Virus record (IMG/VR): IMGVR_UViG_3300031707_000006
Location: 20,499-84,498 of that record
DNA length: 64,000 bases
DNA from: a virus
Direction: 5' to 3' (one strand)
Of this stretch, positions 12,624-29,203 are shown in pieces (positions within the stretch are counted from its first letter, which is position 1; every line of letters starts with the position of its first letter). The position numbers and the translations under genes are program-made. Below the pieces are notes generated by a model. The model was not told where the DNA came from. It was given only the letters and a program-made list of their open reading frames with translations, and did no database searches.

Positions 12624-12805
12624 TTAAATACTCTTTTTAACCAATTATAAAATCTATTATGGAAGAGAATAAATTGTATAAAATTAACTCTTTTAAGCCC
12701 CAGATATAAGGCCAATAACCAATAAGGATCTACAGTATTAGAAACACTAATAGATATTCTGGTTCCGTTTTTATCAATCATAGTATAATATTTCATATTA
12801 ATTCC

Positions 12806-14122
12806 CTATCCATGTTTAGTAATCCTTCCAGTCTTATCATCAAAGTCTGAAAAAATAGAACCTAAAATTCCTGTTTGTCTATTTTTTACTATCATGTGTT
12901 CTAATACTCCAGGCATAGTAGTGTCCTTTGGTTTATAAAGTTCATCTCGATAATACATGATTATTACATCTGCATCTTCCTCTAAGTTTCCCGATTGTCT
13001 TAAATCGGCCTGCATTGGATGTTTATCCTCGCCTCTTAACTCAACACCACGATTTAATTGGGATGCAAGTGTAATTGAAATATTAAGTTCGATTGCTAAT
13101 AATTTCATTGCCCTAGAAATCTGGCCTAATGCGTTCGTAGCATTTTGGTCTCTTGCTGCCATGAGTTGAATATAATCTATAAATACTTGATCTAGATGTT
13201 TCAATTGACAGAATTTTCTTATCGTACCTGTAACATAGGGGATACTCGCTGAGAAATTATTATCCACATAAATTGGTAAAGATTTAATTCTAGGAATTGC
13301 ATCATCAATTAGTTGTAATTTTTCTTTATTCAGATAGCCAAGATGAATATCAGAAATGGGAATTCCTGTTTCAATTCCTAACCATCTCTCTGCTAACATA
13401 TATTTGGGCATTTCATAAGAAAACAGTAAAGAACTATACCCTTTTTTAGCAGACTCCAACATAGATAAACAAATGCTGGATGATTTTCCCATACCTGGCC
13501 TGCCCGCCTCAATCCATAAATTTCCTCTGCCTCTGCCCCCTGTAGCAAAATCTATATCTGGAAAACAAGTAAAAATACCAGAAGTACCTGGATTATTAAT
13601 TCTCTCTTTAATTTCATTCCAACCTGCTCTTAATACGTCTTCAAAAGTAGAGGTAGTTTCCCCGCCGGAAGATAAAGAAAGATTATCTATTCTTACCCTT
13701 GCTTCAGCAATAACTGTATCAATATTTTCCAGATTGGATGCTGGAAGTGAAACAAGCGTACTACCTAATTCAACTAACTGTTTGGCTTTAAAACTCCCAA
13801 CCAATAACCTTTCAAATTCCAAAAGGTTATCAACAGAGTAAGCCTGATTTTTTAAGTATTCTAAGTACGTTGTACCTCCAGCATCCAGCAATCTGGCATT
13901 CGTTTGTAAATAATTTGTTATTAATGATATATCAGGTATAGAACCTTTTGCCGCTAATTCTTGAATTGTAGTAAATAATAACTCATTTGCAATAGAACTC
14001 ATCATAAAAGATTTTAGATAAGTTAATTCAAATACCTTTAATGGATTATTAAGTAAGATACATAAAATTGCTGTCTCGTTTTCAGTGTTAAATATCTTCG
14101 TTGGCATGGCTATCCTCGTCAC
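12806..14122 (-). CDS. dnaB: replicative DnaB-type helicase
   Basis: Walker A GRPGMGKS, FSYEM, IDYIQLM, SQLNRGVE, DLRQSGNLEEDAD, KNRQ. Confidence 0.95.
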   Translation of the reverse strand: MTRIAMPTKIFNTENETAILCILLNNPLKVFELTYLKSFMMSSIANELLFTTIQELAAKGSIPDISLITNYLQTNARLLDAGGTTYLEYLKNQAYSVDNLLEFERLLVGSFKAKQLVELGSTLVSLPASNLENIDTVIAEARVRIDNLSLSSGGETTSTFEDVLRAGWNEIKERINNPGTSGIFTCFPDIDFATGGRGRGNLWIEAGRPGMGKSSSICLSMLESAKKGYSSLLFSYEMPKYMLAERWLGIETGIPISDIHLGYLNKEKLQLIDDAIPRIKSLPIYVDNNFSASIPYVTGTIRKFCQLKHLDQVFIDYIQLMAARDQNATNALGQISRAMKLLAIELNISITLASQLNRGVELRGEDKHPMQADLRQSGNLEEDADVIIMYYRDELYKPKDTTMPGVLEHMIVKNRQTGILGSIFSDFDDKTGRITKHG

Positions 14123-14483
14123 AAAATGGATCTTGCATAACTATATCTTTTAAATCATCTCTAGCACTATTGTATTGAAACTCTAATTGTTTTATATCAA
14201 TTCGATTAATGGGATTCACCTTATCTTCTAATCTTTTCTTTAGGAAATATGTAAGTAACGCATATGGATTCTCTGGTCTAAAATTATCCACATCATACGT
14301 ATCTAATATTGCAAAGAATATATTTTTCCTACTATATACTTTAACAAGTTTGCCAAATATTTTTATATAGGTTGCAAAATTTGTTAAATCATATAACTTA
14401 CAATACAATGAGGTTAATACCACCGCCGGATTGGAAGTGGTATTAATCTCATTTAGAAACTGGTCACTAATATTCTCATCCAT
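14088..14483 (-). CDS. hypothetical protein (possible helicase loader/initiator)
   Basis: Located between SSB and helicase; function inferred from position. Confidence 0.5.
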   Translation of the reverse strand: MDENISDQFLNEINTTSNPAVVLTSLYCKLYDLTNFATYIKIFGKLVKVYSRKNIFFAILDTYDVDNFRPENPYALLTYFLKKRLEDKVNPINRIDIKQLEFQYNSARDDLKDIVMQDPFCDEDSHANEDI

Positions 14484-14487
14484 AAAA

Positions 14488-15303
14488 TTAATCTGCTAGA
14501 ATACTATTAACTCTGTCAACAATATCTGCTGGGACTGCTGCATCACTTTCAGCGACTTCCATCGTTTTCTCCGCACTTTTCTTAGCAAAGATATCCTTTA
14601 AAGAAGCGCCCCTTAGAAAATCTTCCATCTCAGCCAATTCAAGACGGATAACTGCCCTTGATGTATCAAAGTATGCCTCTTCAGGCACAATAATCACATC
14701 ACATCTTTCTCTTGCCACTTGTGGGGTCATCTCCTTTTTCTTTCCCTTTTGCATGACAAGAAGTTCAAAATCATACCTGGTTACGGGTACAGGATTACCA
14801 GCCTCATCTAATTGTGCGGCTTCTAATTGACTAATTAAATCCGCAATAGTAGGAGGAATGGATAATACTTTAACTTTCCCGGATTCCTTTATAGCCGCTT
14901 GATTCAAAATAGAGTTACAGTACGGACAGGTATCTGGAAATCTGCCCGTAAATCCTGCTTTGACTTCTGCCTGACATTCCGTTTTTGGACAAACTTTTAC
15001 CATAGTCCGATCTAGAATATTAATTGCTATTCGATCACTTAAAGAAATTAAACCTTCAATATCTTTCCACTTCTTCCCAGGATTCTCTAACCACAATCTA
15101 CGATTGTTTTTACATGCTGGGCAATCTTCACCTAAACATTGTAAAGAAATTCCAGTTTGTCCTCTAGGGAAATAATGAGAGGGGAGTATTGAAGCTTTCT
15201 CAGTTGGCTCTATAAAACGAATGTAATGTTTTCCTGGTTCTTGAAAAAAATAGTCTAATTTTTTAAATGTACTTGTTGCTCTTGGTGTAAGTTGAAATGG
15301 CAT
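14488..15303 (-). CDS. single-stranded DNA-binding protein (gp32-like, Zn-binding)
   Basis: HYIRF, CLGEDCPAC, INILDR, GKVKVL, YDFEL and acidic C-terminus. Confidence 0.7.
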   Translation of the reverse strand: MPFQLTPRATSTFKKLDYFFQEPGKHYIRFIEPTEKASILPSHYFPRGQTGISLQCLGEDCPACKNNRRLWLENPGKKWKDIEGLISLSDRIAINILDRTMVKVCPKTECQAEVKAGFTGRFPDTCPYCNSILNQAAIKESGKVKVLSIPPTIADLISQLEAAQLDEAGNPVPVTRYDFELLVMQKGKKKEMTPQVARERCDVIIVPEEAYFDTSRAVIRLELAEMEDFLRGASLKDIFAKKSAEKTMEVAESDAAVPADIVDRVNSILAD

Positions 15304-15318
15304 TTTATTTTTCCTTTT

Positions 15319-15615
15319 TTATATTTTTGATTGTGTTGGATTTAAATATTCTTTTATTTTATTTGTTGTAAATTCTTTGAAAGTTTCTAGATATACATCT
15401 TGATCTGCCTCATTTGACAATTCACGTAACAATTTTAGATATCTTTTATATTGACTCTCCACTTCTGCTAACTGTTGAGCATGAATAATATTTGAGAACT
15501 TATGGTCATTCACCAGATGTTCTGGGATCTCTGCCATCGTTTCCACAACTTCCAATGAATTGAAAGGTGATAACTGAAATACTCGCCTGGTTACTACTGT
15601 TTTATACATCCTCAT
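15319..15615 (-). CDS. hypothetical protein
   Basis: 98-aa ORF with AAGGAG RBS behind a promoter. Confidence 0.65.
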   Translation of the reverse strand: MRMYKTVVTRRVFQLSPFNSLEVVETMAEIPEHLVNDHKFSNIIHAQQLAEVESQYKRYLKLLRELSNEADQDVYLETFKEFTTNKIKEYLNPTQSKI

Positions 15616-15632
15616 ACTCCTTTATTATAAAT

Positions 15633-15661
15633 ATTGTACCACATATCTCTTACCTTGTCAA
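15633..15661 (-). promoter_or_regulatory. sigma70-type promoter for the SSB/helicase block
   Basis: TTGACA-17 nt-TACAAT with TG extension. Confidence 0.75.
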
Positions 15662-15924
15662 GAACTAATTGTCGTCAAAATTGCCCGGATAGCCCGGATG
15701 CCAATGATATCCCCAAAATTAATTTCATCTCTGTCATTTAGAATATCCTCAAAATAATCCATTGTTACTGCGTCTAAATCAAAATCAGGGATATTCTCGA
15801 TCATCCACTCTACATATTCGGGATCGGCATCAATGATCTGTTGTAGAGTTTCACCTTGATGTTTACCGAAGGTTAACCTATCCCTCAGATTGTATACTTT
15901 TATTTTCTTTTGTAAGAATGGCAT
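15658..15924 (-). CDS. small FGKH/YG-motif protein (exonuclease X C-terminal-like domain)
   Basis: LTFGKHQGETL...DPEYVEW. Confidence 0.65.
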   Translation of the reverse strand: MPFLQKKIKVYNLRDRLTFGKHQGETLQQIIDADPEYVEWMIENIPDFDLDAVTMDYFEDILNDRDEINFGDIIGIRAIRAILTTISS

Positions 15925-16936
15925 AGCATGTGCTCTTAATCCTTTCTAATACTTCTGGAGTTTGTTTAAGATACTCCATTGTTTTTACAAATCCTTGGCC
16001 CAATCTTTCTTCTCCAAAATAATACCACGCACCGTGTAAACTTAGTATCCCTAAATCCTCTGAGAACCGTATAAAATCCCTTAATCTATCTATGCCTTTT
16101 CCAAATAGAATTGGAATCTGATAACTTCTAAATGGAGGAGCTAATTTATTTTTCATGATAGTAAATTTACACATAATCCCAATTGCTTCTTTATCTAACA
16201 TGAGCATATTTTTTTCCCCTGTTAATGCTTTAGTTTGGATTTCAACAGAAGAAAAATGTTTTATCGCATTGCCTCCAGTAGTTGTAACCATAGGTATATA
16301 CGAACCAATTACTGCCCTTGCCTGCCCAATAAAAATCATTGCTACTTCATTTCTCAAAATAGAGAATTGATTCCTTCTAAAAAATTTGGCTAATAACCTT
16401 GATTGTTGAGTCATTGTGGATTCAATTAATTCCTTTTCCAATTCCTCATCGGGAGATCCAGCACTAACTGAATCTATTACAACTACTCCTACCTCTTTAG
16501 AACGTACAGCATCCTCACATAACGTCATACAATCCTCAAATGATTCTGGTTTTAATATCTTTAACCAATTACCTCCTATATGTAAAGTATAATATAAAAC
16601 ATTACCACTAATTAGATAATCATAACCTTTAAAATATTCATCTACTAAGCCCTGTTCAAGTCCGGCCTCTGAATCAATATAAACAGCATTCAAATGATAT
16701 GTAAGAACTGCATTCTTAACTATCTCCAAAGCCAAATGTGATTTTCCTGATCCGGCAACTCCCCAGATAAAGGTTGTTTTTCCTCTAGGAATACCCCCAA
16801 TACCCAAAGATACATCTAAAGATAAAGCACCTGTTTCTATAACTTTTAAGGTCTTTAATCTTTCTTCTTCTTCCTCAGATAAATCGTATAATTTTTTATA
16901 TTTTTCTTCTAATAGTTCTTCAAAAGTTTCTACCAT
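15878..16936 (-). CDS. recA: RecA/UvsX recombinase
   Basis: TGALSLDVSLGIGGIPRG, Walker A GVAGSGKS, VIDSV, TTTGGNAIKHFSS, KNKLAPPF. Confidence 0.95.
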   Translation of the reverse strand: MVETFEELLEEKYKKLYDLSEEEEERLKTLKVIETGALSLDVSLGIGGIPRGKTTFIWGVAGSGKSHLALEIVKNAVLTYHLNAVYIDSEAGLEQGLVDEYFKGYDYLISGNVLYYTLHIGGNWLKILKPESFEDCMTLCEDAVRSKEVGVVVIDSVSAGSPDEELEKELIESTMTQQSRLLAKFFRRNQFSILRNEVAMIFIGQARAVIGSYIPMVTTTGGNAIKHFSSVEIQTKALTGEKNMLMLDKEAIGIMCKFTIMKNKLAPPFRSYQIPILFGKGIDRLRDFIRFSEDLGILSLHGAWYYFGEERLGQGFVKTMEYLKQTPEVLERIKSTCYAILTKENKSIQSEG

Positions 16937-17158
16937 TTATTCTTCCCTTTTCTTAGAAAAATTACTTATAAATAGATCTAATCCTTTTTCTAGCGCGTCA
17001 TCTTCCAAATAAAAGATATCTGCATTCCCTAAATTAACAAGGACAAAGAGGACTTGGCCCAATCTCCAATCAGGAAAAATAGACCATATTGCCTCTAATT
17101 TAGTTATTATCCGCGTAATTCTAGTTATATCTCTCATTTTATTTGCTCCAATAATCAT
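16937..17158 (-). CDS. conserved small phage protein (MRD..RI..W..PDWRLGQ family)
   Basis: MRDITRI...WSIFPDWRLGQ...DIFYLEDD. Confidence 0.65.
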   Translation of the reverse strand: MIIGANKMRDITRITRIITKLEAIWSIFPDWRLGQVLFVLVNLGNADIFYLEDDALEKGLDLFISNFSKKREE

Positions 17159-19991
17159 TTACTGTAATCTCTACAGCAGCAGGAATTACTTTTAGATATA
17201 TTCTTTCTGCTGTTAACATAGTTTCTTCTACAAACTTTATTGCAGCATTTACGATTTCATCTTTTACCTCTATTACAACTTCATCGTGTACTTGCATAAG
17301 AATATGAAAATCTTTATATTCAAAAGGATTATTATAAAATAGATTACACATTGCATCTTTAATAATATCCGCCGCACTCCCTTGTATGAGCATATTGTAA
17401 CCCTCTCTCATACTTGCCGCATTTTCTTTTTCAGCTTCTTCCATATTTTTGTAGATTCTTCGATGATCAAAATATCTTTTTCTACCTAATAAAGTTTTAG
17501 TATGCCCTTTACTTAATACTGCCTCACCAAAAGATTTTCTAAATGCAACCATTGTTGGATATCCCGTATTAATTGCAATAAGAACATCTTCTGCGACATC
17601 TTGAGAAATATGTAATTTCTTAGAAAGTCCCCAAGCACTGCTTCCAAATAAAGAAGCAAAGTTGATATTTTTGGCATCATCTCTTTGTTCCTTTATAACT
17701 TCATCAAGGGTACAATGATTAACCAAAGCAGCAGTAGAGGTATGCATATCCTTACCTTCCTGATATGCTTTAATAATCAATTCATCTTCTGTTATTTCTC
17801 CCACCAATCTATACTCTTCTTGATTATAATCTGCACGTAAAAGTTTATATCCAGGTCTCGCTATAAATGTTGCACGATATTCTGCCAATTTAGGTATGTT
17901 TTGTAAATTTATTGAGTCACTATTTCCAGTGATAGCCACAATATGTCCTTGTTTCATAACCCAAGTTCCACATTCTGTTGTTGGACACCAAACATCCATT
18001 TCTTTTTCTGGAGCCCAATTACAATTTCGATTCGCATATAATTCATCAGAACAAGTAAGATGATAATAAATAAAGGGTTTCCCTGATTTTAATTTTCTTT
18101 TACTAAAACTATATGGCTTCGCTAAGGCTAAAGAAAGTAATTCAAAGTACTCACAGGATTGTTTCTTTTGGGTTTCCAAACTTCCAAATCCAATATATTT
18201 CTTTAATTCTCTCCGATAAGATCCATCTCCCTCAATCATAGATAAGTACATTATTTCCCAGCATTCCTCTGATAAACTCATGATAATTTTACTTGGGGGA
18301 TGTGTAAGAAACGTTTGATAGATTGGCTCAAATATTTCAGAACTAATATGAAAAGCACTCACATAATGTGAATCGTATTCATATTGTTTATATCTATTTA
18401 GCGTATAAGATACATTATTTTCATCTAACCAACCTTTTAATAATTGAATACTCCTCCCTTTTACAAGGGAAATTCCTAATCCATGATTTTTCTTTCCGGT
18501 TAAAAATCCATCGGATAAGTACCAGCCAAGTAACAATGCTTGTGTTTTATCTAAAAGAGACGTTTTACAATCCTGCAATTTAACGTTTGGCATTAAAACT
18601 GTGTCATATTTTCTTGGAATACTATTTGCATTACTAAATCCAATTATCTTTGAATCCTTAGTAATCCATTTATGATTGGCTGTACATAAAATTCCTTTTT
18701 GATATTTAGAATCATGACCTTTGTTAACTACTAATCTTCCAACAAGGTCTTTTCCAATCGTTATATCATCTATAGTTGTAATTTTATATTGATATTTTTG
18801 TAAATCAAAACCAATAACTTGATCCCCAATATTTACCTCATTATATTTTTTCCAACCATTCAACGTGAGTATTTCTGAATCCAAAGGTACACAACTGTAT
18901 CTCCCAGAAGTTGCCCCAAGTTGATTAAATTTAGAATGTATTCTACCTGTAGTTGGGTGTATATTTTCAAACCAACTTACACCATAAGTAGATACTCTTT
19001 TAGCGCGATTTCTATATTCTAATATTAAATCTATAAGAGGTTCTCCAGCAAATAATACTAATGTATCTTCATTCGTATCTTCTACAGGAATATTAAATAG
19101 ATTTAATGCATTCTTCATATGTACATGAGAACCAGGATTTAATCTTTCATAAATCCAAGAAGTAAGTGCATAAGTTGAATCTACTTGTTCGAGATATTTC
19201 TTATCTCTGACCAATTTTACTTTAATTCCTAATGTTTCAGATAACTCTATAGAACTATTGAACTTAGTTGTATCTATATTATTAAGTATATAATCTTTTA
19301 TTTTTTTATGGAATAAATCTCTTTCAACTTCTGCTAATTTAGCAAGATTCTCCCATGCAACTTTATCTAATAAGATGCCCTCTAATTCCATCATTACGGT
19401 AACTGGAGTTAATCTATTCTCAAGATTAAATACATCTAGTTGTTTTTGTTCTATTAACTTTACTAAAAGAATATCTTTTAATCTCTTAAGATACATTACA
19501 TCCTCGGTAGAGTATACTAACATATCTTCAGTGATTTGTCCAAATGGATCTTCATAGAATTTTTTTCTTACTGTTTTATCTAATTGTATTCCTAGATATT
19601 TTAAGCAAATATCGTCTAAAGATGGATATCTGGATAAGGCTAGACCATTTGTAACCATTACTTCAGCAGATTGTAAATCTATTAAATCTGTAAAGAGTAG
19701 ATTATATTTAGATTTAATGAATTTTAGGTCAAACTTTAGATTAAATCCAACAAGGATTGAATCACTTTCTTGTAATAAAGAACAAATATAAATAATATTC
19801 TTATCTCCTAAGAGTTGAGCATCAAATAAGAATATTTTATTATCTATCTCTACTTGAATTAATCTAATAAAATTCAGATAAGGATCTAATCCACTTGTTT
19901 CTATATCAAATCCTATTACAGTATCTTTTCTATTAATAAGAGACTTTTGAAAAGATGATAATTCACTTAAAGAAGCGATATAAGAATACAT
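17139..19991 (-). CDS. polA: family A DNA polymerase (3'-5' exonuclease + polymerase) with intein
   Basis: FDIETSG, FNLKFD, SGRYS, NLQNIP, ADYNQEEYR, RDDAKNINF, IQGSAAD and QVHDE motifs; no 5'-3' exonuclease domain. Confidence 0.95.
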   Translation of the reverse strand: MYSYIASLSELSSFQKSLINRKDTVIGFDIETSGLDPYLNFIRLIQVEIDNKIFLFDAQLLGDKNIIYICSLLQESDSILVGFNLKFDLKFIKSKYNLLFTDLIDLQSAEVMVTNGLALSRYPSLDDICLKYLGIQLDKTVRKKFYEDPFGQITEDMLVYSTEDVMYLKRLKDILLVKLIEQKQLDVFNLENRLTPVTVMMELEGILLDKVAWENLAKLAEVERDLFHKKIKDYILNNIDTTKFNSSIELSETLGIKVKLVRDKKYLEQVDSTYALTSWIYERLNPGSHVHMKNALNLFNIPVEDTNEDTLVLFAGEPLIDLILEYRNRAKRVSTYGVSWFENIHPTTGRIHSKFNQLGATSGRYSCVPLDSEILTLNGWKKYNEVNIGDQVIGFDLQKYQYKITTIDDITIGKDLVGRLVVNKGHDSKYQKGILCTANHKWITKDSKIIGFSNANSIPRKYDTVLMPNVKLQDCKTSLLDKTQALLLGWYLSDGFLTGKKNHGLGISLVKGRSIQLLKGWLDENNVSYTLNRYKQYEYDSHYVSAFHISSEIFEPIYQTFLTHPPSKIIMSLSEECWEIMYLSMIEGDGSYRRELKKYIGFGSLETQKKQSCEYFELLSLALAKPYSFSKRKLKSGKPFIYYHLTCSDELYANRNCNWAPEKEMDVWCPTTECGTWVMKQGHIVAITGNSDSINLQNIPKLAEYRATFIARPGYKLLRADYNQEEYRLVGEITEDELIIKAYQEGKDMHTSTAALVNHCTLDEVIKEQRDDAKNINFASLFGSSAWGLSKKLHISQDVAEDVLIAINTGYPTMVAFRKSFGEAVLSKGHTKTLLGRKRYFDHRRIYKNMEEAEKENAASMREGYNMLIQGSAADIIKDAMCNLFYNNPFEYKDFHILMQVHDEVVIEVKDEIVNAAIKFVEETMLTAERIYLKVIPAAVEITVNDYWSK
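17922..18893 (-). mobile_element. intein with LAGLIDADG endonuclease (324 aa) in DNA polymerase
   Basis: GRYS|CVPLDSEILTLNGWK, CTANH, LGWYLSDG, MIEGDG, ends VWCP...TGN|S. Confidence 0.92.
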
Positions 19992-19992
19992 A

Positions 19993-20247
19993 TCAGTCTA
20001 CTGTAAAATTAATTATATCGTTTTCATGCTTTAAGCAATGCATCTTCTCATAAGCATTAGCAAATGCCATATAATAGCCTGCCTGTTCACTCCACACATC
20101 TCCTGGTAAACATCTTGCAATTCCTTTAACACCATTAGGTAGGATAACGATTGTAACAGGTTTTGACCAAATTACATTTACCAATCCAATTCCTCGAACA
20201 GGGAATTGATGATGCTTGCACGATTTTTCCTTAACCTTTTTATTCAT
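19993..20247 (-). CDS. hypothetical protein
   Basis: 84-aa ORF with PVTIVI...KGIARCLPGDVWS motif and AAAGGA RBS. Confidence 0.65.
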   Translation of the reverse strand: MNKKVKEKSCKHHQFPVRGIGLVNVIWSKPVTIVILPNGVKGIARCLPGDVWSEQAGYYMAFANAYEKMHCLKHENDIINFTVD

Positions 20248-20412
20248 TTTATTTTTCCTTTCAAATTATTTCTTCTTGCTCAGTTCTATCTTTTGAATAC
20301 TGGAGAAGCACTGAATAAGTTACATTTATTACTTATAAACTTTAATGGTTTATTTCCTCTTGCTCCCCGTCTTGGCTTCGCAAGTATAACTCTAGTTTAT
20401 TCAATTATGAGT

Positions 20413-20441
20413 AGTATAGCATAATTTTGAGGGGCTGTCAA
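20413..20441 (-). promoter_or_regulatory. strong sigma70-type promoter for the replication arm
   Basis: TTGACA-17 nt-TATACT with TG extension. Confidence 0.8.
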
Positions 20442-20551
20442 GAGGCAATTTTCTCTAAACACCATTCACGAACACCCTCATAGGTAACTTTATCATCCAA
20501 TTCTATCTTTGCCTCTACTTCAAAATTAATTGTGAATCTCCGTTTAGCCAT
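20438..20551 (-). CDS. 37-aa peptide
   Basis: MAKRRFTINFEVEAKIELDDKVTYEGVREWCLEKIAS with AAGGAG RBS. Confidence 0.5.
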   Translation of the reverse strand: MAKRRFTINFEVEAKIELDDKVTYEGVREWCLEKIAS

Positions 20552-20561
20552 ATTTTGCTCC

Positions 20562-20590
20562 TTGACAATCTTAGACTTTTAGGGTAAAAT
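20562..20590 (+). promoter_or_regulatory. rightward sigma70-type promoter
   Basis: TTGACA-17 nt-TAAAAT. Confidence 0.75.
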
Positions 20591-20646
20591 ACACACTAAT
20601 TCACCTATGAGAGGCAAATTTTTTTGTGTATCTCATTCTGAATTAC

Positions 20647-20674
20647 ATGATACCCTAAATTTGTAGTTTGTCAA
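20647..20674 (-). promoter_or_regulatory. leftward sigma70-type promoter facing the rightward one
   Basis: TTGACA-16 nt-TATCAT. Confidence 0.6.
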
Positions 20675-20682
20675 GGAGCAAA

Positions 20683-20922
20683 ATGCCAATCCGTCATGAT
20701 TTCAATTTCTGGGAGTGTAAATATTGCCACAAAGATTACAAGTTAGAACTCATGGCTTTAGGTTGCGAGCAAAGCCACGAGATTATATACCTCCCTATCC
20801 GTAAAGATGATCTTCAAAGGTTAATCCAATTCATCTACATGAAGGACGAGCGATTACTTACACCTACGTTATTAGAGACCCTTATGCCATATTCCCAGAA
20901 CATGCGGGGAGGGAATGCATGA
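20683..20922 (+). CDS. small zinc-finger-like protein
   Basis: ATG 20683 after AAGGAG; WECKYC...CEQSH. Confidence 0.65.
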   Translation: MPIRHDFNFWECKYCHKDYKLELMALGCEQSHEIIYLPIRKDDLQRLIQFIYMKDERLLTPTLLETLMPYSQNMRGGNA

Positions 20923-21143
20923 TCTGTATCTTCTGTGATAAAGAAGTATTAGATGATATATTTACTCTGGGAATTGATATCCCCTATATTAACTTAAAAG
21001 TGCATAAATATTGCTGGAAAATGCATAAAAATACTAATTATCTACAACAAAATGCAGAAGTGTGCTATAATAGGATCGTAAAGATTATTGAGGAAAGAGA
21101 TAATGGATCAACCAGAAAAGAAAAAAAGAAAACCACGAACTAA
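20919..21143 (+). CDS. small zinc-binding protein
   Basis: CIFC...HKYC; ATGA coupling. Confidence 0.6.
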   Translation: MICIFCDKEVLDDIFTLGIDIPYINLKVHKYCWKMHKNTNYLQQNAEVCYNRIVKIIEERDNGSTRKEKKKTTN

Positions 21144-21822
21144 AACCGTATTGTCGTCTAAAAATCAGATGCGGAATCTGAGTCAATTTAAGGAATTATC
21201 AAATGATGAATTTGATGAGATGTTTGCTAAGAGGCTTTTTGGAATCGAAAAGGCTCAAATTTTTGAACAAAGGATTGAAAAGAAACTAGCCGATTTTGCT
21301 GAAGATTATGACGTTTCTGATATGAAAATTAATGACAAATATCTTCTAAGAGCATTAGCACAGGCAGTAGTTTCTCTAGAAGATTATGAAAATTTTGTTT
21401 TTAATATTCGTGCAGAAGGTATTGGTACAGAGAATATCTTTCTAATTGAAAAAATTCAAAAGGTTATGACCGATCTTAGAAGAGATGTTTCTACGATGCA
21501 GGATGATCTTAAAATTACCAGGAAGATTAGAAAAGGAGACTCAGAAACATCAGTTATTAATTATATTGAAACTTTAAAAGAAAAAGCAAAAAAGTTTTAT
21601 GAATCTAGAATGATGATAGTTACCTGTCCTAAATGTAATAAGTGGATCTTTTCTGGTTGGTTTTTATTTCCACATGAAAAACAAAATAAAATTATTTTAC
21701 AGTGTGATGGTGATATGGGAGATGGGACAAAATGTGGAGAAGTTATAAGATTAACTTCTACAGAGTTATTGGAAAAACGTGGGTATAGTGATCCAGAAAT
21801 TTTTCCTGAGTCACTTATCTAG
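21088..21822 (+). CDS. putative terminase small subunit
   Basis: Helical protein with basic N-terminus and C-terminal Zn ribbon, first large gene of the packaging arm; assignment positional. Confidence 0.45.
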   Translation: MRKEIMDQPEKKKRKPRTKTVLSSKNQMRNLSQFKELSNDEFDEMFAKRLFGIEKAQIFEQRIEKKLADFAEDYDVSDMKINDKYLLRALAQAVVSLEDYENFVFNIRAEGIGTENIFLIEKIQKVMTDLRRDVSTMQDDLKITRKIRKGDSETSVINYIETLKEKAKKFYESRMMIVTCPKCNKWIFSGWFLFPHEKQNKIILQCDGDMGDGTKCGEVIRLTSTELLEKRGYSDPEIFPESLI

Positions 21823-21834
21823 TTATGGAGAAAT

Positions 21835-22518
21835 ATGTATAAAGGATTTAATATTACAGTTGGAATTCCTGTTTATAACAATTATCGGGGATTAAGGAAA
21901 TGTATTATTTCTGCCGAAATGGGAGAGGTAAAGCCTGATCTTTATTTTATATTTGATAATGGTGGTTTATATAATAATATTTTATTTAAAGATGAAATGG
22001 ATGTTAGTAAGATCCGGTTATATAGACCTGGGTATAATCAAGGTGTCGCAAAGGCATGGAATCTTATTATTAGAAATACAACAGATATAAGAATTATCTG
22101 TAATGATGATATTGAATTTCATACGGATACTGTAAAAGTGTTTGTAGATAATTTTGATGAAAACAAGATAACATTCCCGGATGAAAAGAGAGATAATCTT
22201 TTTTCTTGTTTTAGTATACCAACAAAATTATTTAATGCAATTGGTGAGTTTGATGAATCGCTGAGTCCTAACTATGGATATTTTGAGGACAACGATTATT
22301 ATCGTAGAGTAATTCTTTATGGACAAGAATTTGGTTTCCAATCTATTCCTACTGGATATGAACACATTGGTAGTACTACATTGAAAAATTATAGTCCAGG
22401 TGAATTATCTTTACACCATAAAAAGTTTGAATTAGCAAAAGCCAATTACATAAAAAAATGGGGAAATCTCCCACATCAAGAAACTTTTACAATTCCTTAT
22501 AACGGTGTGAAACAATGA
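21835..22518 (+). CDS. GT2-family glycosyltransferase
   Basis: GIPVYN, FDNG, NQGVAKAWN, NDD, FDE...YFEDNDY. Confidence 0.85.
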   Translation: MYKGFNITVGIPVYNNYRGLRKCIISAEMGEVKPDLYFIFDNGGLYNNILFKDEMDVSKIRLYRPGYNQGVAKAWNLIIRNTTDIRIICNDDIEFHTDTVKVFVDNFDENKITFPDEKRDNLFSCFSIPTKLFNAIGEFDESLSPNYGYFEDNDYYRRVILYGQEFGFQSIPTGYEHIGSTTLKNYSPGELSLHHKKFELAKANYIKKWGNLPHQETFTIPYNGVKQ

Positions 22519-23282
22519 TAACATATCTGCAACTGAATAACAGAAGTGTAGCAGGCCGCTTGGGAAACAATTTATTTGAGATCGCAAGTACGATAGGAAT
22601 CGCAGATTCTTTAAATATTCCTTTTTACTTTCCTACTTGGCCGTACAGCAGGTATTTTAAACATGAGTTACCTCAAAAAAGTTATGATGAACTTTCTTCT
22701 TATAAACTAAAAATATTTACTGAGAAACAATTCAATTATGATTTTATTTCTTTAGATGTTCGCCATTCTTGGAGTCTCTGTGGGTATCTACAATCCTGGA
22801 AATATTTTGTAAATTCATTTGATAAAATTAAATATTATTTTGAACCTAATTTTGAAACAAATGATAATTCAAAAGACCTAGTTTCAGTGCATGTGAGGAG
22901 AGGCGATTATCTCGATCGTAAAGGATTCCATACTTGTTTAACTGAAACAAATTATTATCAGAAAGCAATGGCCCTATTTCCTGATGATAAATTCCTAATC
23001 TTCTCTGATGATATTCACTGGTGTATGCAAAGTGATTTATTTGATAATGATCGATGTATCTATAAAATGAATGAGACATCTGATACTGCAACTCCCGCAC
23101 CCTTTGATTTATTACACATGGTTTATATGGCAAAATGTAAACATCATATTATCGCCAATTCTAGTTATTCCTGGTGGGGTTCTTTTCTTGGAAATTCAAA
23201 TAGTATAACTATTGCTCCTAGACAATGGTGGGTTAATAATAATTCCAGCGATATTTACTTACCACATTGGATTCAAATATGA
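22515..23282 (+). CDS. GT11 alpha-1,2-fucosyltransferase-like
   Basis: GRLGNNLF, GYLQSWKYF, SVHVRRGDY, FSDD, HHIIANSSYSWWG. Confidence 0.92.
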   Translation: MITYLQLNNRSVAGRLGNNLFEIASTIGIADSLNIPFYFPTWPYSRYFKHELPQKSYDELSSYKLKIFTEKQFNYDFISLDVRHSWSLCGYLQSWKYFVNSFDKIKYYFEPNFETNDNSKDLVSVHVRRGDYLDRKGFHTCLTETNYYQKAMALFPDDKFLIFSDDIHWCMQSDLFDNDRCIYKMNETSDTATPAPFDLLHMVYMAKCKHHIIANSSYSWWGSFLGNSNSITIAPRQWWVNNNSSDIYLPHWIQI

Positions 23283-24229
23283 TTGAGGATCAATTAGTCT
23301 TTATAGACACATTTGCAAAACTTGATTCCATTATGGATAAGTATAAAAATAAGAAAATTAGAGTAGCCTATAGTGGGGGATCGGACTCTGATAATGTAAT
23401 GTGGTTATTACGAACTAGAGGATATAATGTTCCCGCTGTATTTTGGGATACAGGATTAGAATATGCTGCTACATATGAACATTTAGATTATATGAGATCA
23501 GTTGGATTTAGTATTGAAAAAGTTAAGGCCAAAAACCCCATCCCAACAACTTTGATGAAATATGGTCAACCCTTTGTAAGTAAAAGAGTCAGTGATTATT
23601 TATCCAGACTACAAAAGCATGGTTTTAATTTCCAGAATGATGGGAATAAAACTTTTAAAGACTTAACTGTAAAATATGAAAATTGTAAAACAGCATTATC
23701 GTGGTGGTGTAATAAGTTCCCCTATATAACAACAAATATTACTTATAATCGGTATTTAAAAGAATTCTTAATAGAATATGGACTCCCCTTTTCTGTATCC
23801 GATCAGTGTTGCACTTGGGCGAAAAAACAACCTAGTAAGGACTATACAAAAAAAAATCATATTGATTTAATGATTTTAGGAATTAGGAAAGCTGAAGGGG
23901 GTTCTAGAGCCAGAGCATATAAAACTTGCTTTTTACCTCCAAAATTGCACACATATGCTTTATATTTCCCCTTATTTTGGTGGAAAAAAGTCGAGAAGCA
24001 ACTTTTTTGTGGGGAATTGAATATAAAATATAGTGATTGTTATACAAAATATGGGATGACAAGAACAGGTTGTGCTGGTTGTCCTTTTAGTAGAACTTTT
24101 GAAAATGAATTGGATATCCTGAGACAATATGAACCAAATCTATATAAGGGAGCAACAAAAATGTTTAATTCTTCTTATGAGTGGACTAGAAAGTATAAAC
24201 AATTTATAGAGAATGAAAAACGTGGATAA
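23267..24229 (+). CDS. PAPS-reductase-family (PP-loop, Fe-S) protein
   Basis: AYSGGSDS, DTGLEY, CC...KKQP, GIRKAEG, RTGCAGCP. Confidence 0.85.
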   Translation: MDSNMIEDQLVFIDTFAKLDSIMDKYKNKKIRVAYSGGSDSDNVMWLLRTRGYNVPAVFWDTGLEYAATYEHLDYMRSVGFSIEKVKAKNPIPTTLMKYGQPFVSKRVSDYLSRLQKHGFNFQNDGNKTFKDLTVKYENCKTALSWWCNKFPYITTNITYNRYLKEFLIEYGLPFSVSDQCCTWAKKQPSKDYTKKNHIDLMILGIRKAEGGSRARAYKTCFLPPKLHTYALYFPLFWWKKVEKQLFCGELNIKYSDCYTKYGMTRTGCAGCPFSRTFENELDILRQYEPNLYKGATKMFNSSYEWTRKYKQFIENEKRG

Positions 24230-25538
24230 TATTGAAGAAAGAATCAAGGATCTTATTGGTCTTTTAAGAGAAGATGGAAGTAATGTATTAGGCTATGTCT
24301 ATAATGATGACGCTAAATTTATACCTGGTATTACTCCAGTATACTACTCAGGCCCGTATTGGGATAATAAAGAAATTATTGCGGCTGTAAAGGCATTACT
24401 TACTGGTAAGTGGTTATCTTCTGGAGAAAAAGTTAAAGAATTTGAAGATAAATTCTCTGAAAAATTTGGTGGTGGTTATTCTGTAATGGTTAACTCAGGC
24501 TCATCTGCTAATTTAGTTATGTTAGCAGCATTGAAAAAATATTATGGTTGGGCAGATGGTGCAGAAGTTATTGTTTCTTGTGTGGGTTTTCCTACTACAA
24601 TTGCCCCCATCGTACAGAACAATCTAAAACCAGTTTTTGTAGATATTGAATTAGACACACTAAATGCAGACTATTTAGAGATATATAATTCTATAAATGC
24701 TAATACAGTAGCAATATTAATCTCTCCAGTATTAGGTAATCCTCCTGATATGGGTAAATTACTAAATTTACATTCTATATTAGACTTAGAATTAATCTTG
24801 GATAATTGTGATAGTTTGGGGACTACTTGGGATTATACTTTACTTAATCAATTAGTTGTGGCATCTTCTTGTTCATTCTATCCGGCTCACCACTTAGCCA
24901 TCGGTGAAGGAGGAATGATCTCATCTAAAAATGAAAGTATTATTAAACTTGCAAGAAGTATTGCATGGTGGGGTAGAGATTGTGAATGCACTGGCGCTCA
25001 GAATTTATTGTCTAATGGGATGTGTCATAAACGATTTGCTTGTTGGTTGGATAACTATGATGGGATTATTGATCATAAATATTTATTTACAAATATGGGA
25101 TATAATTTAAAACCATTAGATTTTCAAGGCGCAATGGGGTTAGAACAACTCAAAAAATTTGATGAGATACATTATCGTAGAGTACAGAATGAACACATTA
25201 TTACAGAGACTTTTCTAAAATATCTTCCAGAATTAAAAACCCCAACAGTATTATCAGGAGCGAAACCATCCTGGTTTGGTACTCCTTTTATTTGTCCTAA
25301 TAAGGAATATAAAAATAAATTAGTGGCATTTTTAGAATCTAAGAAGATTCAGACACGGAATTATTTCGCTGGTAATATACTTTTGCACCCCGGCTATAAA
25401 CATTTGGGGAACTATAGGGATTATCCTAATGCAAATAAGATATTGGATACCGTATTTTTTATCGGTTGTGCCCCGCATTATGGGGAAAATATTTTGGGTT
25501 ATATAGAAGATTGTGTAAAGGAGTTCTATATTAATTAG
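24213..25538 (+). CDS. rfbH: NDP-4-keto-6-deoxyglucose 3-dehydrase E1 (RfbH/AscC/DdhC-like)
   Basis: MVNSGSSANL, LDNCDSLG, SFYPAHH (His at the cofactor-lysine position), WWGRDCEC Fe-S cysteines, DHKY, FAGNILLHP. Confidence 0.9.
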   Translation: MKNVDNIEERIKDLIGLLREDGSNVLGYVYNDDAKFIPGITPVYYSGPYWDNKEIIAAVKALLTGKWLSSGEKVKEFEDKFSEKFGGGYSVMVNSGSSANLVMLAALKKYYGWADGAEVIVSCVGFPTTIAPIVQNNLKPVFVDIELDTLNADYLEIYNSINANTVAILISPVLGNPPDMGKLLNLHSILDLELILDNCDSLGTTWDYTLLNQLVVASSCSFYPAHHLAIGEGGMISSKNESIIKLARSIAWWGRDCECTGAQNLLSNGMCHKRFACWLDNYDGIIDHKYLFTNMGYNLKPLDFQGAMGLEQLKKFDEIHYRRVQNEHIITETFLKYLPELKTPTVLSGAKPSWFGTPFICPNKEYKNKLVAFLESKKIQTRNYFAGNILLHPGYKHLGNYRDYPNANKILDTVFFIGCAPHYGENILGYIEDCVKEFYIN

Positions 25539-25539
25539 A

Positions 25540-25597
25540 ACAAGATGGCTAGTGATAGCTACACGAAAAAGCATACCTCCATGCTCTGCCATTTTGT
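25540..25597 (+). ncRNA. candidate three-way-junction RNA element
   Basis: ACAAGATGGC/GCCATTTTGT enclosing GTG/CAC and AGCAT/ATGCT hairpins. Confidence 0.45.
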
Positions 25598-25625
25598 ATT
25601 TTAAGGAGAACTAAAAGGAGAAAAG

Positions 25626-25682
25626 ATGAGCAAATTAATTAATTTAATCGGTCAAAGATTTGGTAGATTGACCGTTAAATAA
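25626..25682 (+). pseudogene. N-terminal remnant of an AP2/HNH-type homing endonuclease
   Basis: MSKLINLIGQRFGRLTVK-stop with AAGGAG RBS; L.G.RFGRLTV is a typical N-terminus of these phage proteins. Confidence 0.65.
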
Positions 25683-25709
25683 CATAATTAGATATATGAA
25701 AGAAACTTT

Positions 25710-26399
25710 ATGACATTATTAAGTATAGCAATTCCAACATATGGATATCACGGAAGGGGAGAAGGACTTTTAGAATATTCCTTTAATAAATTAGAATCTC
25801 AGTATTTTACAGATTTTGATGTAGTTGTTGCAGATCATTCTGAAGATGATAAGATTAAGAATTTATGTGAAAAGTGGAATCATAAATTGTCTATTCATTA
25901 TCTCAGAAATGAAGAAAATAGAGGATCGGCAGCATATAATACTGACTTTGTTATAAGACATAGTACTGGTAAATTTATTAAAATTCTTTGCGGAGATGAC
26001 TACCTTTATGATGCATTTTCACTAGAAAAACCCATTCTAGCATTTGATGAAACTACTATGTGGATTGCAACTGCATATATGCACACAAGAGATAAATTAC
26101 ATTTTTTCAAATACCATTGTCCTAGTTTAAATCCTAAGATTTATATGTGTAATACTATAGGAACTCCAAGTTGTATTACTATACGCAATTCCTCAGATAT
26201 TCCTCGAATGGATACAAATCTTAAATATGCATATGATTGTGATTGGTATTATAGAATGATAAATAGTCCATACGGTAATCCTAAAATTATAAATGATATT
26301 ACAATTATTAACTATTTATGGGATGGTAGTATTACATCAGAAATGTCTGATAAACAAATCTCTGATGAATTAGAAAAGGTAAGAAAGAAATATGAATAA
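25710..26399 (+). CDS. GT2-family glycosyltransferase
   Basis: SIAIPTY, VADHS, CGDDY, IGTPS, DCDWYYR. Confidence 0.85.
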   Translation: MTLLSIAIPTYGYHGRGEGLLEYSFNKLESQYFTDFDVVVADHSEDDKIKNLCEKWNHKLSIHYLRNEENRGSAAYNTDFVIRHSTGKFIKILCGDDYLYDAFSLEKPILAFDETTMWIATAYMHTRDKLHFFKYHCPSLNPKIYMCNTIGTPSCITIRNSSDIPRMDTNLKYAYDCDWYYRMINSPYGNPKIINDITIINYLWDGSITSEMSDKQISDELEKVRKKYE

Positions 26400-27030
26400 A
26401 CTGTTTATAATTAGTAGGTATGAAGAGAATTTAGATTGGTTAAAATCTTATAACTTTAATTATCTTATTTATAATAAAGGAAAACCAATTGAAGACCCAA
26501 ATATAATTAATATTGAGAATATAGGTGGAAATCAAATAGATATTTTTAGATTTATTTATGATCATTATGAAGATCTTCCTGATGTTATGGTGTTTATACA
26601 AGCCCATCCTTTTGATCACTGCCGTAAAGAACTTTTTGACTTACTTATAAATAATATAGTTTTTACACCACTAGAATATTATGGAAAATTTCCGGCAAAC
26701 TCTTGGGAAAGACGAACAGAGGAGGGGGGATATTTAGAAATAAATAATAATTGGTATATAAAAAATAATAACGATCATTATAATATAACTTGTAGATATT
26801 CATCTTTTGATGAGTTTATGAATAAATATTTTAATAATTATGAACACATAGAGTGGATACGTTTTTCCCCTGGTTCTCAGTATATTGTGGAGAGAATGCG
26901 AGTACTGCACTATCCCAGGGAATTTTGGAGAAAATTAATGGATGAACTTAATAGTAGATTTTCAACTGAGGGACATATTATTGAAAGGAGTTTATGGATG
27001 ATATTTCAATGCAAACTAAACCTGAGATAA
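26392..27030 (+). CDS. DUF3431-like (probable GT-A fold) protein
   Basis: SRYEENLDW, YNKG, YEDLPDVMVFIQAHPFDH, FSPGSQYIV, GHIIERSLW. Confidence 0.75.
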   Translation: MNKLFIISRYEENLDWLKSYNFNYLIYNKGKPIEDPNIINIENIGGNQIDIFRFIYDHYEDLPDVMVFIQAHPFDHCRKELFDLLINNIVFTPLEYYGKFPANSWERRTEEGGYLEINNNWYIKNNNDHYNITCRYSSFDEFMNKYFNNYEHIEWIRFSPGSQYIVERMRVLHYPREFWRKLMDELNSRFSTEGHIIERSLWMIFQCKLNLR

Positions 27031-27953
27031 ATCATTTCTCTCCAGGGTTGCACAAGTTGATTCACCATACAGAACACTTAGCAAAAATACAAAGAGGTGA
27101 AATTGTTGGGCCAATTCATGTATCTGTATGGCCTACAAATAAATGTCAATTAGCCTGTACATACTGTTGTTTTAGGAATGTAATGAGAAATGATATAGAA
27201 TTAGGTTTACACGATTTCAAACATGCTACAAATGTACTTAGATCTCATGGACTTAAAGCAATGGAATTCTCTGGTGGAGGAGAGCCATTACTTTGGAAAC
27301 ATTTTGATGAAACTGTGGAGTTTGCTTTTCAAGAGGGTTTGAAATTATCTTTAGTAACCAATGGACTTTTACTGCCTAAGATTCCTACGAAAACATTAGA
27401 AAAATTTACCTGGATTCGGGTAAGTATCCAATCTGCAAACTATGCAAGAAAGATTGATTTTGATTGTATTCCCAAAAATGTTCGACATAGTGCCTCATTT
27501 ATCGTTCATGATGATCATACTTTAGCTGGGATAAAAAATTTATATCTATTTGCCAAAGATTTAAATTTGGTTATCAGAGTGGCTCCTATACGTCCGTGTA
27601 CATTAGAGTGGGAGAAAACAGTGGGAGATGAAACTGATAAATATGGATATCCATTAGTATTCTTTAGAAAAGAATCGGGTACACCATTAGGTTGTTATAT
27701 GATATATCTTCGGGCGGCAATAGATTGGAATGGTAATTTTCTTCCTTGTCCATCTATAGAATTAGGGTATGAATCTGAAGCGAATATACCAGATGATTTT
27801 GCTGTTTGTCATGTTTCTAAATTAGAGGAATGGTTACAAAACAATCCTCCTCATGATATGGGATATCGTTGCAAATTTTGCAACTGCGGTAAGGAATCAA
27901 ATGATCTAATCTATAATTTATTACAGCCGATTGAGGATGTGGATTTTGTATAA
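26994..27953 (+). CDS. radical SAM protein with SPASM/twitch-like C-terminus
   Basis: CQLACTYC, SGGGEPL, VTNG, C-terminal C...PC...CKFCNC. Confidence 0.88.
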   Translation: MDDISMQTKPEINHFSPGLHKLIHHTEHLAKIQRGEIVGPIHVSVWPTNKCQLACTYCCFRNVMRNDIELGLHDFKHATNVLRSHGLKAMEFSGGGEPLLWKHFDETVEFAFQEGLKLSLVTNGLLLPKIPTKTLEKFTWIRVSIQSANYARKIDFDCIPKNVRHSASFIVHDDHTLAGIKNLYLFAKDLNLVIRVAPIRPCTLEWEKTVGDETDKYGYPLVFFRKESGTPLGCYMIYLRAAIDWNGNFLPCPSIELGYESEANIPDDFAVCHVSKLEEWLQNNPPHDMGYRCKFCNCGKESNDLIYNLLQPIEDVDFV

Positions 27954-28521
27954 TTGTGGGATTTATCAAATTAAGAATTTAGTAAATAAAAAATGTTATG
28001 TGGGACAGGCCGTCAGATTACATAAAAGAGAAATAGATCATTTTTCCCAACTTAGATCGGACAGACACGAGAATCAACATCTTCAAAGGGCTTGGAATAA
28101 ATATGGAAAAGAAAACTTTAAATTTGAAATATTAATCTATTGTGAACCGTTTGAATTAACTAGATATGAACAATTTTTTAGTGATTACTATAAAAAACTA
28201 GATCTTCCTTATAATATAAGAAATTGTGTAGACAGTAATAAGGGTTTACCTTGTTCTGATGAAACTAAAAGAAAGATATCTGAAAAACAAAAAGGAGAAA
28301 AAGCATATAATTACAAAAAGATTTTTTCTAAAGAAACAAGAGATAAAATTTCCAAGGAACTAAAAGGACGAAAAAGAACAGAAGAACACATAAAAAATTT
28401 ATTAACTTCTTTAAATGGAAGTTCCGGAATGTTTGGCAAACAACACAGAGAAGATACAAAGAAAAAAATGTCAGAGGCTAGAAAACTATATTGGCAGAAG
28501 AGGAGAAAAGAACGTGCTTGA
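27931..28521 (+). mobile_element. freestanding GIY-YIG homing endonuclease with NUMOD3-like repeats
   Basis: GIYQIKN...CYVGQ, LQRAWNKYG, repeated S.ET..KIS / HREDTKKKMS. Confidence 0.88.
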
Positions 28522-29203
28522 TCGGTTGGAAAAACAAAAAATGTTTAGTGAGTACATAAATTCCGATGGAAGTTTTAAACCCGAATTCTACAATGAAGAT
28601 TATTATGAAAGAGGAAAAGAAAGTGGCCGCGGCTGGCTCGAAAATTACCATTTAATGCCCGAAAGAAGTATCAGAGAGTCTTTTGCTTTTATTGATTATA
28701 TGGGTTTAGATTCTCAAAGGGATTTTATTTTAGACTTTGGTTGTGCTAAAGGATTCTTAGTATGGGCATTTAGATTCTTAGGATATAAAGCAGAGGGTTG
28801 TGACATCAGTGATTATGCACTCTCTTTTGCCCCAGATGGTTGTTGGAATTGTGCTACTTTAGATTCCTGGAGAGACCATGAATTAAGATATAGTCACATC
28901 GTGTGTAAAGATGTGTTTGAACACATTGAAGAGAAAACATTATTCTCTACCTTACGAGGATTAACTATGTTTGCTCCTAAGATGATGTGTGTAATCCCTA
29001 TGGGAGATCATGGTAAATATCGTATCCCGGAATATCATATGGAGATTTCACACGTAATTATTGAGAATGAAATTTGGTGGGAAGATATGTTTATCGGTGC
29101 AGATTGGAATGTTATTAAGCATACAAATCATGTACCTGGATTAAAAGACAACTGGATGAATGTGCCTGATGGGAATCATGTATTTGTATTGGAGGCTAAA
29201 TGA
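28415..29203 (+). CDS. class I SAM-dependent methyltransferase
   Basis: ILDFGCAKG, GCDISDYA, DVFEH; likely start GTG 28514 after AGGAG. Confidence 0.85.
   Translation: MEVPECLANNTEKIQRKKCQRLENYIGRRGEKNVLDRLEKQKMFSEYINSDGSFKPEFYNEDYYERGKESGRGWLENYHLMPERSIRESFAFIDYMGLDSQRDFILDFGCAKGFLVWAFRFLGYKAEGCDISDYALSFAPDGCWNCATLDSWRDHELRYSHIVCKDVFEHIEEKTLFSTLRGLTMFAPKMMCVIPMGDHGKYRIPEYHMEISHVIIENEIWWEDMFIGADWNVIKHTNHVPGLKDNWMNVPDGNHVFVLEAK

Follow-up and report, generated by a model that had tools for sequence, protein, structure and literature searches.

Promoters that face each other are known from coliphages 186 (pR/pL) and P2 (Pe/Pc) and from the Escherichia coli bio operon, where both lie under one palindromic operator. 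In phage 186 the pair forms a lysis/lysogeny switch, with start sites about 62 bp apart and with the repressor genes CI and Apl flanking it. In phage phi29, the replication and morphogenesis operons diverge from a central region (A2b/A2c versus A3), and the late promoter has no -35 box and depends on protein p4. For the face-to-face pR and pL of 186, elongation from one promoter reportedly interferes with the other, as Dodd et al. are said to have described in 1990 and Callen et al. in 2004. Here we describe a facing pair of putative promoters, P_R and P_L, at the junction between two divergent arms of a phage genome, IMG/VR record IMGVR_UViG_3300031707_000006 (84,498 bp in full). The window, by which we mean the whole stretch of DNA that was analysed, comprises 64,000 nt (bases 20499-84498 of that record); positions are counted from its first base, on the strand presented (+), unless given as genome coordinates.

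Other described arrangements come from restriction-modification systems, bacterial chromosomes and prophages. In the Ecl18kI system, the promoters Pm and Pr of two divergent genes face each other, and polymerase bound at one lowers binding at the other through a front-end clash; one of these promoters lies inside a gene and is without consensus elements, and the methyltransferase is the regulator (PMC2760811). Divergent excludons, defined from RNA-seq, are divergent genes whose 5' leaders overlap, leading to transcriptional interference and double-stranded RNA, and the available maps list 16 divergent cases in E. coli and 10 in S. aureus (PMC12288877). In prophages of Clostridium clostridioforme, convergent promoters have been predicted bioinformatically in lysogeny modules, between regulator genes that diverge, and interference like that of 186 has been proposed (PMC11318856).

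At the junction described here, the start codons of the two arms are 131 bp apart and an inverted repeat joins the -35 box of each promoter to the Shine-Dalgarno (SD) sequence of the gene that leads the opposite arm. The facing promoters recur at the same place in related phages. On this evidence, the junction is probably a face-to-face promoter pair that starts both arms and acts through transcriptional interference.

Translation starts and promoter elements at the junction

The earlier note on this DNA, made from the letters alone, described a perfect 17-bp inverted repeat with additional 9-bp inner arms, and both are present (Table 1). A repeat finder extends the outer arms to 20 nt at 95% (20552-20571 and 20665-20684). 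Over the 84,498 bp scanned, the 17-bp repeat exceeds every other inverted repeat whose gap is at most 200 nt; a length of 17 bp was reached in none of 100 first-order Markov genomes, and 16 bp, their maximum, in 2 of 100. The 9-mer TTTAGGGTA has no occurrence in the 84.5-kb genome beyond the two inner arms.

Read outward, each arm is a translation start, as the note had claimed, with AAGGAG-CAAAAT-ATG on the left leading into a 37-aa open reading frame (ORF) and AAGGAG-CAAA-ATG on the right leading into a 79-aa ORF; the spacers between SD and ATG differ by 2 nt. Read inward, again in agreement with the note, each strand carries TTGACA with a properly spaced -10 box (TAAAAT for P_R, TATCAT for P_L), and each promoter matches the consensus at 11 of 12 positions. 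The further claim that the ribosome-binding site of one arm is also the -35 box of the other holds only in part: SD complement and -35 box are joined in a single 10-mer, CTCCTTGACA, but they are not the same letters and have just 2 nt in common. Genome-wide, this composite 10-mer is found at the two junction sites only.

TTGACA followed by a -10 box with at least five of six matches occurs at five sites in the genome, on the - strand at 20674 (P_L), 20441 (a second leftward promoter, P3), 15661 and 9094 and on the + strand at 20562 (P_R), which is the sole such site on that strand. All five lie between genes and point in the direction of the genes, four being on the replication arm and P_R on the other. 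The hexamer itself is depleted, the two strands together having 23 copies where 200 Markov genomes give 59.2 +/- 6.5 (minimum 42), and because it is scarce while the reversed hexamer occurs 54 times, TTGACA behaves as a real signal. Such avoidance would be expected if the host polymerase reads TTGACA. At genome coordinates 11327-11356, outside the window (locus L137), the interval between two + genes contains a perfect 30-bp palindrome with TTGACA on each strand and no matching -10 box. The right arm also carries extended -10 motifs resembling TGTGnTATAAT, with no -35 box, at 21061-21071, 37605-37615 and 62521-62531 (+), which may serve packaging and structural genes as a second class of promoter.

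That the repeat might be an artefact of assembly, a concern of the earlier note, is not borne out: contigs from four of four other runs (X2 to X5; Table 1) span the palindrome with 0 differences and in one orientation. The same contigs bear on whether the 99-nt segment bordered by the inverted 17-bp repeats could be invertible, as that note had also suggested. They show no joint at the repeat that changes strand, although rare forms are lost from contigs. PHROGs and Pfam gave no recombinase family for the ORFs scanned, where small family-less ORFs could hide one. Inversion would just swap the -10 regions and leaders, giving an equivalent state with near-identical promoters, and we regard it as extremely improbable. 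In a variant strain represented in X3 and X4, 20002-20152 carries 25 differences and 20153-20690 none, and divergence resumes at 20691; the strain's version of the 79-aa protein ZnF1 (P0091) is merely 79% identical. This pattern suggests that 20153-20690 is an island of identity, arising from selection or strong constraint or from recent or mosaic exchange.

The junction as a whole, 20549-20686, folds into one nested hairpin, as RNA at -51.6 kcal/mol (z -8.4) and as DNA at -28.8 (z -7.2), with 0 of 200 shuffles equal in either case. A large dyad capable of hairpin or cruciform formation, located at the head of the replication arm and close to a change in the sign of GC skew (about 20700-20900), is what one might look for in a bidirectional origin activated by transcription, at which the facing promoters would supply primers or R-loops for leading strands both ways. 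The earlier note had raised an origin as an alternative. However, the skew change coincides with the switch of coding strand and is inseparable from it, and there is no AT-rich dip (GC 0.335-0.37 in 20400-20800 versus 0.33 genome-wide). Nor are there iterons or a direct-repeat family in 20300-20950, which holds short two-copy direct repeats only, 80-100% alike, and the central dyad is not conserved in relatives. We judge an origin at this site to be highly unlikely.

Several other candidates were rejected. A conserved central hairpin is contradicted by z values of -0.9 to +0.7 in the junctions of five relatives and by differences in L360 and L364 that fail to preserve a stem. Known protelomerase sites are contiguous palindromes, and a site of this type was dropped because the arms here stand 99 nt apart with no contiguous palindrome. 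As a local motif, AGAGGCAA was too weak, with three of its seven genomic copies within 180 bp. Rfam 15 covariance models gave 0 matches in 20100-21000 at E values up to 1.

Conservation of the facing pair

A search and alignment with the N-extein of the phage's family-A DNA polymerase yielded 80 IMG/VR loci, and a facing promoter pair is present in the two nearest, L139 (genome G001) and L192 (genome G002). The pairs are 99 bp apart in G001 and 100 bp apart in G002, every promoter matches at 12 of 12 positions, and both lie at the same replication/packaging junction. The two genomes are syntenic with this phage, with 30 and 17 ORFs matched, respectively, at 23-55% identity and in the same order in both arms. 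Perfect promoters number five in G001 and seven in G002 on the polymerase arm and exactly one in each on the other arm, and a backwards control gave 0. No facing pair was found in 119 unrelated loci.

A metagenome scan with an alignment of the 244-aa protein encoded on the right arm gave nine loci, seven of them new, since L352 and L353 belong to the contigs of G002 and L248. L355 and L356 have facing pairs at 12 of 12, L248 and L364 are further relatives with a facing pair, and L354, L358 and L359 are short or have no pair. At six related junctions (G001, G002, L248, L355, L356 and L364), whose phages are syntenic with this one and show 30-55% identity in their proteins, both partners reach 12 of 12 and carry TGn ahead of the -10 box. 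When seven junctions are aligned, the -35 box, TGn, -10 box and SD are conserved and the centre is not. Of the 14 promoter sides, 11 have the exact composite CTCCTTGACA, six of seven on the polymerase side and five of seven on the other; on the remaining side of G001, the start codon overlaps the -35 box and the SD falls within the spacer. As a double composite, CTCCTTGACA-N80-110-TGTCAAGGAG, it occurs in five stretches in all IMG/VR, three of which are relatives of this phage, and the other two have no -10 boxes and look like chance. A scan with a 14-mer of the arm was uninformative on relatives, its 124 occurrences at 119 loci including 24 that are like ribosome-binding sites, five that are promoter-like and 0 that are both. 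Because the layout is conserved in relatives, it appears to be functional rather than accidental.

This conservation also bears on the possibility that only one promoter works and that an inverted duplication of the translation-start region produced the other TTGACA as a by-product. The -10 boxes of this phage are imperfect and without TGn, and P3, 233 nt downstream of P_L, could alone serve the replication arm. Yet both partners are perfect and carry TGn at all six related junctions, and elsewhere in the genome TTGACA is avoided, which makes a single working promoter improbable in our view.

Scanned with the pattern TTGACA-N17-TATAAT-N30-60-ATTATA-N17-TGTCAA, IMG/VR yields perfect face-to-face pairs in at least 126 stretches, against 0 for the same pattern reversed as a control. 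Among the matches listed (L225-L350), 135 matches represent 97 distinct cores in 67 clusters, with sizes near 95 and 105 bp (94-97 and 103-106 bp); 27 of 65 flanked clusters have, no more than 200 nt away on each side, an outward ORF preceded by an SD, and four of the 65 have the exact SD/-35 composite. These results suggest that the layout is far commoner in phages than the studied cases imply: facing consensus promoters between divergent genes appear to be a common phage layout, whereas the welding of SD to -35 box seems particular to this clade. Some of the listed contigs have two or three pairs within a few kb. In one listed family, ATTACG...CGTAAT-like repeats occur in both spacers; in another, a GC-rich dyad separates the -10 boxes.

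Within the conserved layout, this phage has features of its own. Its -10 regions read AGGG-TAAAAT and AGGG-TATCAT, both after TTTAGGG, where relatives have TGn-TATAAT, and its ribosome sites are both GGAGCAAAA, where the clade mostly has GGAGGAATT. The two junction promoters appear to have lost TG by the same change, and the extra palindromy, consisting of TTTAGGGTA in both promoters and the central hairpin, seems to be lineage-specific. Perfect arms, of 21 bp, are also present in L355, with a sequence unlike this phage's. That the two halves changed together suggests that the inverted copies underwent gene conversion or that a symmetric ligand acts on them.

A symmetric ligand would make the junction an operator, at which a dimeric or looping phage regulator bound to the TTTAGGGTA boxes (centres 73 bp apart), to the 17-bp arms (116 bp apart) or to both shuts or opens the two promoters together; this is compatible with the promoter reading. 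Confined to its two sites, TTTAGGGTA sits exactly at the relatives' TGn position, and the arms are identical past SD and -35 box. Judged by the z value of the whole-junction DNA fold, dyad symmetry is stronger here (-7.2) than in G001 (-4.8) or G002 (-2.4). P3 has a similar upstream flank, TTGCCTC against TTGCTCC in the arms, and other listed IMG/VR pairs have operator-like repeats in both spacers. However, no DNA-binding family was found in the flanking ORFs, the TTTAGGGTA motif is missing in relatives and is therefore not part of the conserved design, and concerted evolution or gene conversion of inverted promoter copies would look alike. Moreover, since AAGGAGCAAAAT also serves as the ribosome site of a third gene, starting at 9707, the arm consists in part of a translation start that is reused. 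Overall, we consider an operator, which would apply to this lineage alone, rather unlikely.

Predicted interference between the arms

If both promoters, which are of the host sigma-70/sigma-A type, are active, P_R (-35 box at 20562) would fire rightward into ZnF1, ZnF2, the terminase and the morphogenesis arm, and P_L (-35 box at 20674) leftward into the 37-aa ORF and the replication arm. Transcription typically starts about 7 nt past a -10 box. The predicted starts, near 20597 for P_R and near 20640 for P_L, give leaders of 86 nt (to the ATG at 20683) and 89 nt (to the ATG at 20551), respectively, whose 5' ends would overlap by about 44 nt. At the level of sequence, this agrees with the earlier note, in which the promoters faced each other, the 5' ends overlapped by roughly 45 nt and each transcript crossed the opposite promoter. 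Because each -35 box is fused to the SD complement of the opposite gene in CTCCTTGACA, each leader would be antisense to the other promoter. A polymerase from either promoter would traverse the other before reaching any ribosome-binding site, so that a blocked transcript would be non-coding. Polymerases could interfere by colliding, by occluding the opposite promoter or by steric crowding of their open complexes, and the leaders might also pair. The near-perfect symmetry would reflect two copies of one module, promoter plus translation start, evolving in concert.

The net effect is probably a throttle or coupling rather than an all-or-none switch, because the replication arm has three more strong promoters downstream. 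P_R has no consensus back-up on the right arm, where there are merely the extended -10 sites (21061, 37605 and 62521). Since the replication arm is backed up by P3 and two further promoters and P_R is not, the throttle or coupling would act mostly on early rightward transcription and on the 37-aa ORF. The earlier note had proposed a switch between replication and morphogenesis; facing, conserved promoters on arms of these kinds are indeed present, but a switching role sits poorly with the three further replication-arm promoters (20441, 15661 and 9094) and the extended -10 sites of the right arm. A more elaborate version would have the junction act as a per-template toggle or a transcription-primed bidirectional origin, where one polymerase wins each genome copy and commits it to the replication-arm leader or to the packaging arm, with a symmetric factor at the TTTAGGGTA boxes biasing the outcome over time. 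We find this version decidedly doubtful.

Several points weigh against reading the junction as a pair of interfering promoters. Promoter activity and start sites are deduced from the elements described above, and interference from geometry alone. In 12000-30000, promoter-like sites number 79, which is not above shuffles (94.5 +/- 10), and only the top-scoring sites stand out. Both junction promoters look weaker than those of relatives (no TGn; TAAAAT and TATCAT; one 16-nt spacer) and therefore may need a factor. Promoter function alone appears to leave unaccounted for the identity of the arms beyond SD and -35 box, the TTTAGGGTA pair and the central hairpin.

Geometry and distribution add to these points. 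An open complex spans roughly -55 to +20, so that two complexes might just co-exist here, where about 44 bp separate the predicted starts, although not in relatives, where the predicted separation is about 30-34 bp. Such crowding agrees with the clash of polymerase front ends reported for Ecl18kI (PMC2760811). The other 78 of the 80 polymerase loci, which are more distant relatives, have no facing pair, and neither has L357. In L351, the nearest relative by the 244-aa protein, just 52 bp separate the -35 boxes and the -10 boxes overlap; the 1.75-kb contig shows no leftward gene. The region left of the L351 promoters (1-330) has no ORF of at least 30 aa and looks non-coding, and the contig ends there.

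Flanking genes and comparison with known systems

The genome, from sediment metagenomes, has an estimated completeness of 93% and a GC content of 33%; the sequencing runs listed as containing it include no RNA run. Gene families on the two sides of the junction confirm the earlier labels of a replication and a morphogenesis arm. Leftward, on the - strand, the 37-aa and 84-aa ORFs are accompanied by a family-A DNA polymerase (PolA) with an intein, a UvsX-like recombinase, a DnaB-like helicase, RusA, an exonuclease, a primase, nucleotide-metabolism genes and an RNA ligase. Rightward, on the + strand, two small zinc-finger proteins and the 244-aa protein are followed by about 11.5 kb with glycosyltransferase, aminotransferase and radical-SAM genes and the large terminase, and beyond it by portal, tape measure and tail fibre. 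In keeping with the earlier note, which had seen no cI- or cro-like gene beside the repeat, Pfam and PHROGs place no helix-turn-helix (HTH), cI, cro or repressor family among the flanking ORFs, and no HTH, repressor or integrase family was found in them or in the other ORFs scanned.

The 37-aa ORF has no Pfam or PHROGs family, and its protein atlas scores of at most 0.82 are at chance level; the variant strain carries it unchanged, and relatives do not conserve it. The variant strain has an intein-less polymerase of 626 aa (P0002), with the N-extein 99% identical. ZnF1 homologues occupy the same arm in relatives. An AlphaFold2 (AF2) model of ZnF1, with a predicted local distance difference test (pLDDT) score of 79, has a beta-beta-alpha zinc-finger-like N-terminus, and Foldseek with this model returned no match at E <=0.001, merely weak C2H2 rows, all with E >1. 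The pair of small zinc-binding proteins, ZnF1 and ZnF2, sits ahead of the 244-aa protein in six of six relatives read there.

The 244-aa protein is a candidate small terminase, because its gene lies directly ahead of the large terminase in relatives. The two are adjacent in G001 and L248, unlike here, where 21835-33296 (+) intervenes with glycosyltransferase, PAPS-reductase-like, aminotransferase, radical-SAM, methyltransferase and GIY-YIG genes. The large terminase itself (33297-36050, +) has 917 aa, including a LAGLIDADG homing-endonuclease-like insert, against 525 aa in relatives. Terminator-like hairpins with T runs follow two further right-arm genes, at 40190-40221 (+) after gene 39248-40180 and at 49852-49895 (+) after gene 48611-49813. 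A GenBank phage search (distant mode, 4 kb) found no match, and locus searches with single proteins gave intein matches alone for the polymerase and one weak match for the 244-aa protein.

Table 1. Features of the junction, its flanking genes and the contigs that bridge it (window positions)
Feature	Position	Strand	Remarks
Left arm of 17-bp inverted repeat, ATTTTGCTCCTTGACAA	20552..20568		perfect; 99 nt to right arm
Right arm of 17-bp inverted repeat	20668..20684		perfect complement of left arm
Inner arm TTTAGGGTA	20578..20586		abuts and overlaps P_R -10 box, where relatives carry TGn
Inner arm TACCCTAAA	20651..20659		complement of TTTAGGGTA, 9/9 pairing; abuts P_L -10 box
SD AAGGAG of 37-aa ORF (CTCCTT on +)	20558..20563	-	2 nt in common with P_R -35 box
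SD AAGGAG of 79-aa gene (ZnF1)	20673..20678	+	2 nt in common with P_L -35 box
P_R (predicted promoter)	20562..20590	+	TTGACA 20562-20567, 17 nt, TAAAAT 20585-20590; 11/12 match
P_L (predicted promoter)	20647..20674	-	TTGACA 20674..20669, 16 nt, TATCAT 20652..20647; 11/12 match
P3 (second predicted leftward promoter)	20413..20441	-	TTGACA, 17 nt, TGcTATACT; 233 nt downstream of P_L
Central dyad	20597..20645		7+6+5 bp stem-loop; -13.6 kcal/mol, z -4.0, 0/200 shuffles; where the two transcripts are predicted to overlap at their 5' ends
37-aa ORF	20438..20551	-	first gene of replication arm; ATG 20551..20549; TGA stop within -35 box of P3
84-aa ORF	19993..20247	-	followed by family-A DNA polymerase gene
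Family-A DNA polymerase with intein	17139-19991	-	950 aa
ZnF1	20683..20922	+	79 aa; CX2C-X12-CX3H; first gene of packaging/morphogenesis arm
ZnF2	20919..21143	+	74 aa; CxxC ... PYINL ... HxxC; kept beside ZnF1 in relatives
244-aa protein	21088..21822	+	C-terminal zinc ribbon; no Pfam or PHROG family
X2 record 3	18897-21171		bridging contig
X3 record 12	20153-20690		bridging contig
X4 record 19	19978-20690		bridging contig
X5 record 28	20466-20761		bridging contig

As far as sequence alone can tell, the junction resembles phage 186 in having opposite-strand promoters that would fire at each other over a short distance, and divergent excludons in having divergent neighbouring genes, with start codons at 20551 (-) and 20683 (+). 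It differs from 186 in that no repressor family or integrase hit is found, which sets it apart from temperate switches of the 186 type, and in that its arms are those of replication and of packaging and morphogenesis, each -35 box being fused to the opposite ribosome-binding site. Unlike Ecl18kI, both promoters here are near-consensus, symmetric and intergenic; unlike phi29, both have a consensus -35 box, and no regulator was found. Many of the listed IMG/VR facing pairs resemble the C. clostridioforme prophage type, a temperate switch beside HTH regulators, whereas this clade is without such genes at the junction. The accessible part of the divergent-excludon study mentions no fusion of SD and -35 box (PMC12288877). 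The literature searched gave no description of such a fusion at facing promoters, which may still exist elsewhere.

These comparisons are consistent with the junction being a real, conserved regulatory architecture that would work like the known face-to-face systems. As an element of 130 bp, compact and easily synthesised, it lends itself to measuring interference between two strong natural promoters. The arrangement recurs through a clade of uncultured phages, with each -35 box welded to the ribosome-binding site of the opposite gene. What has been a textbook device of a few temperate phages and restriction-modification systems would thus be found here at the sole divergence point of a large, apparently virulent phage.

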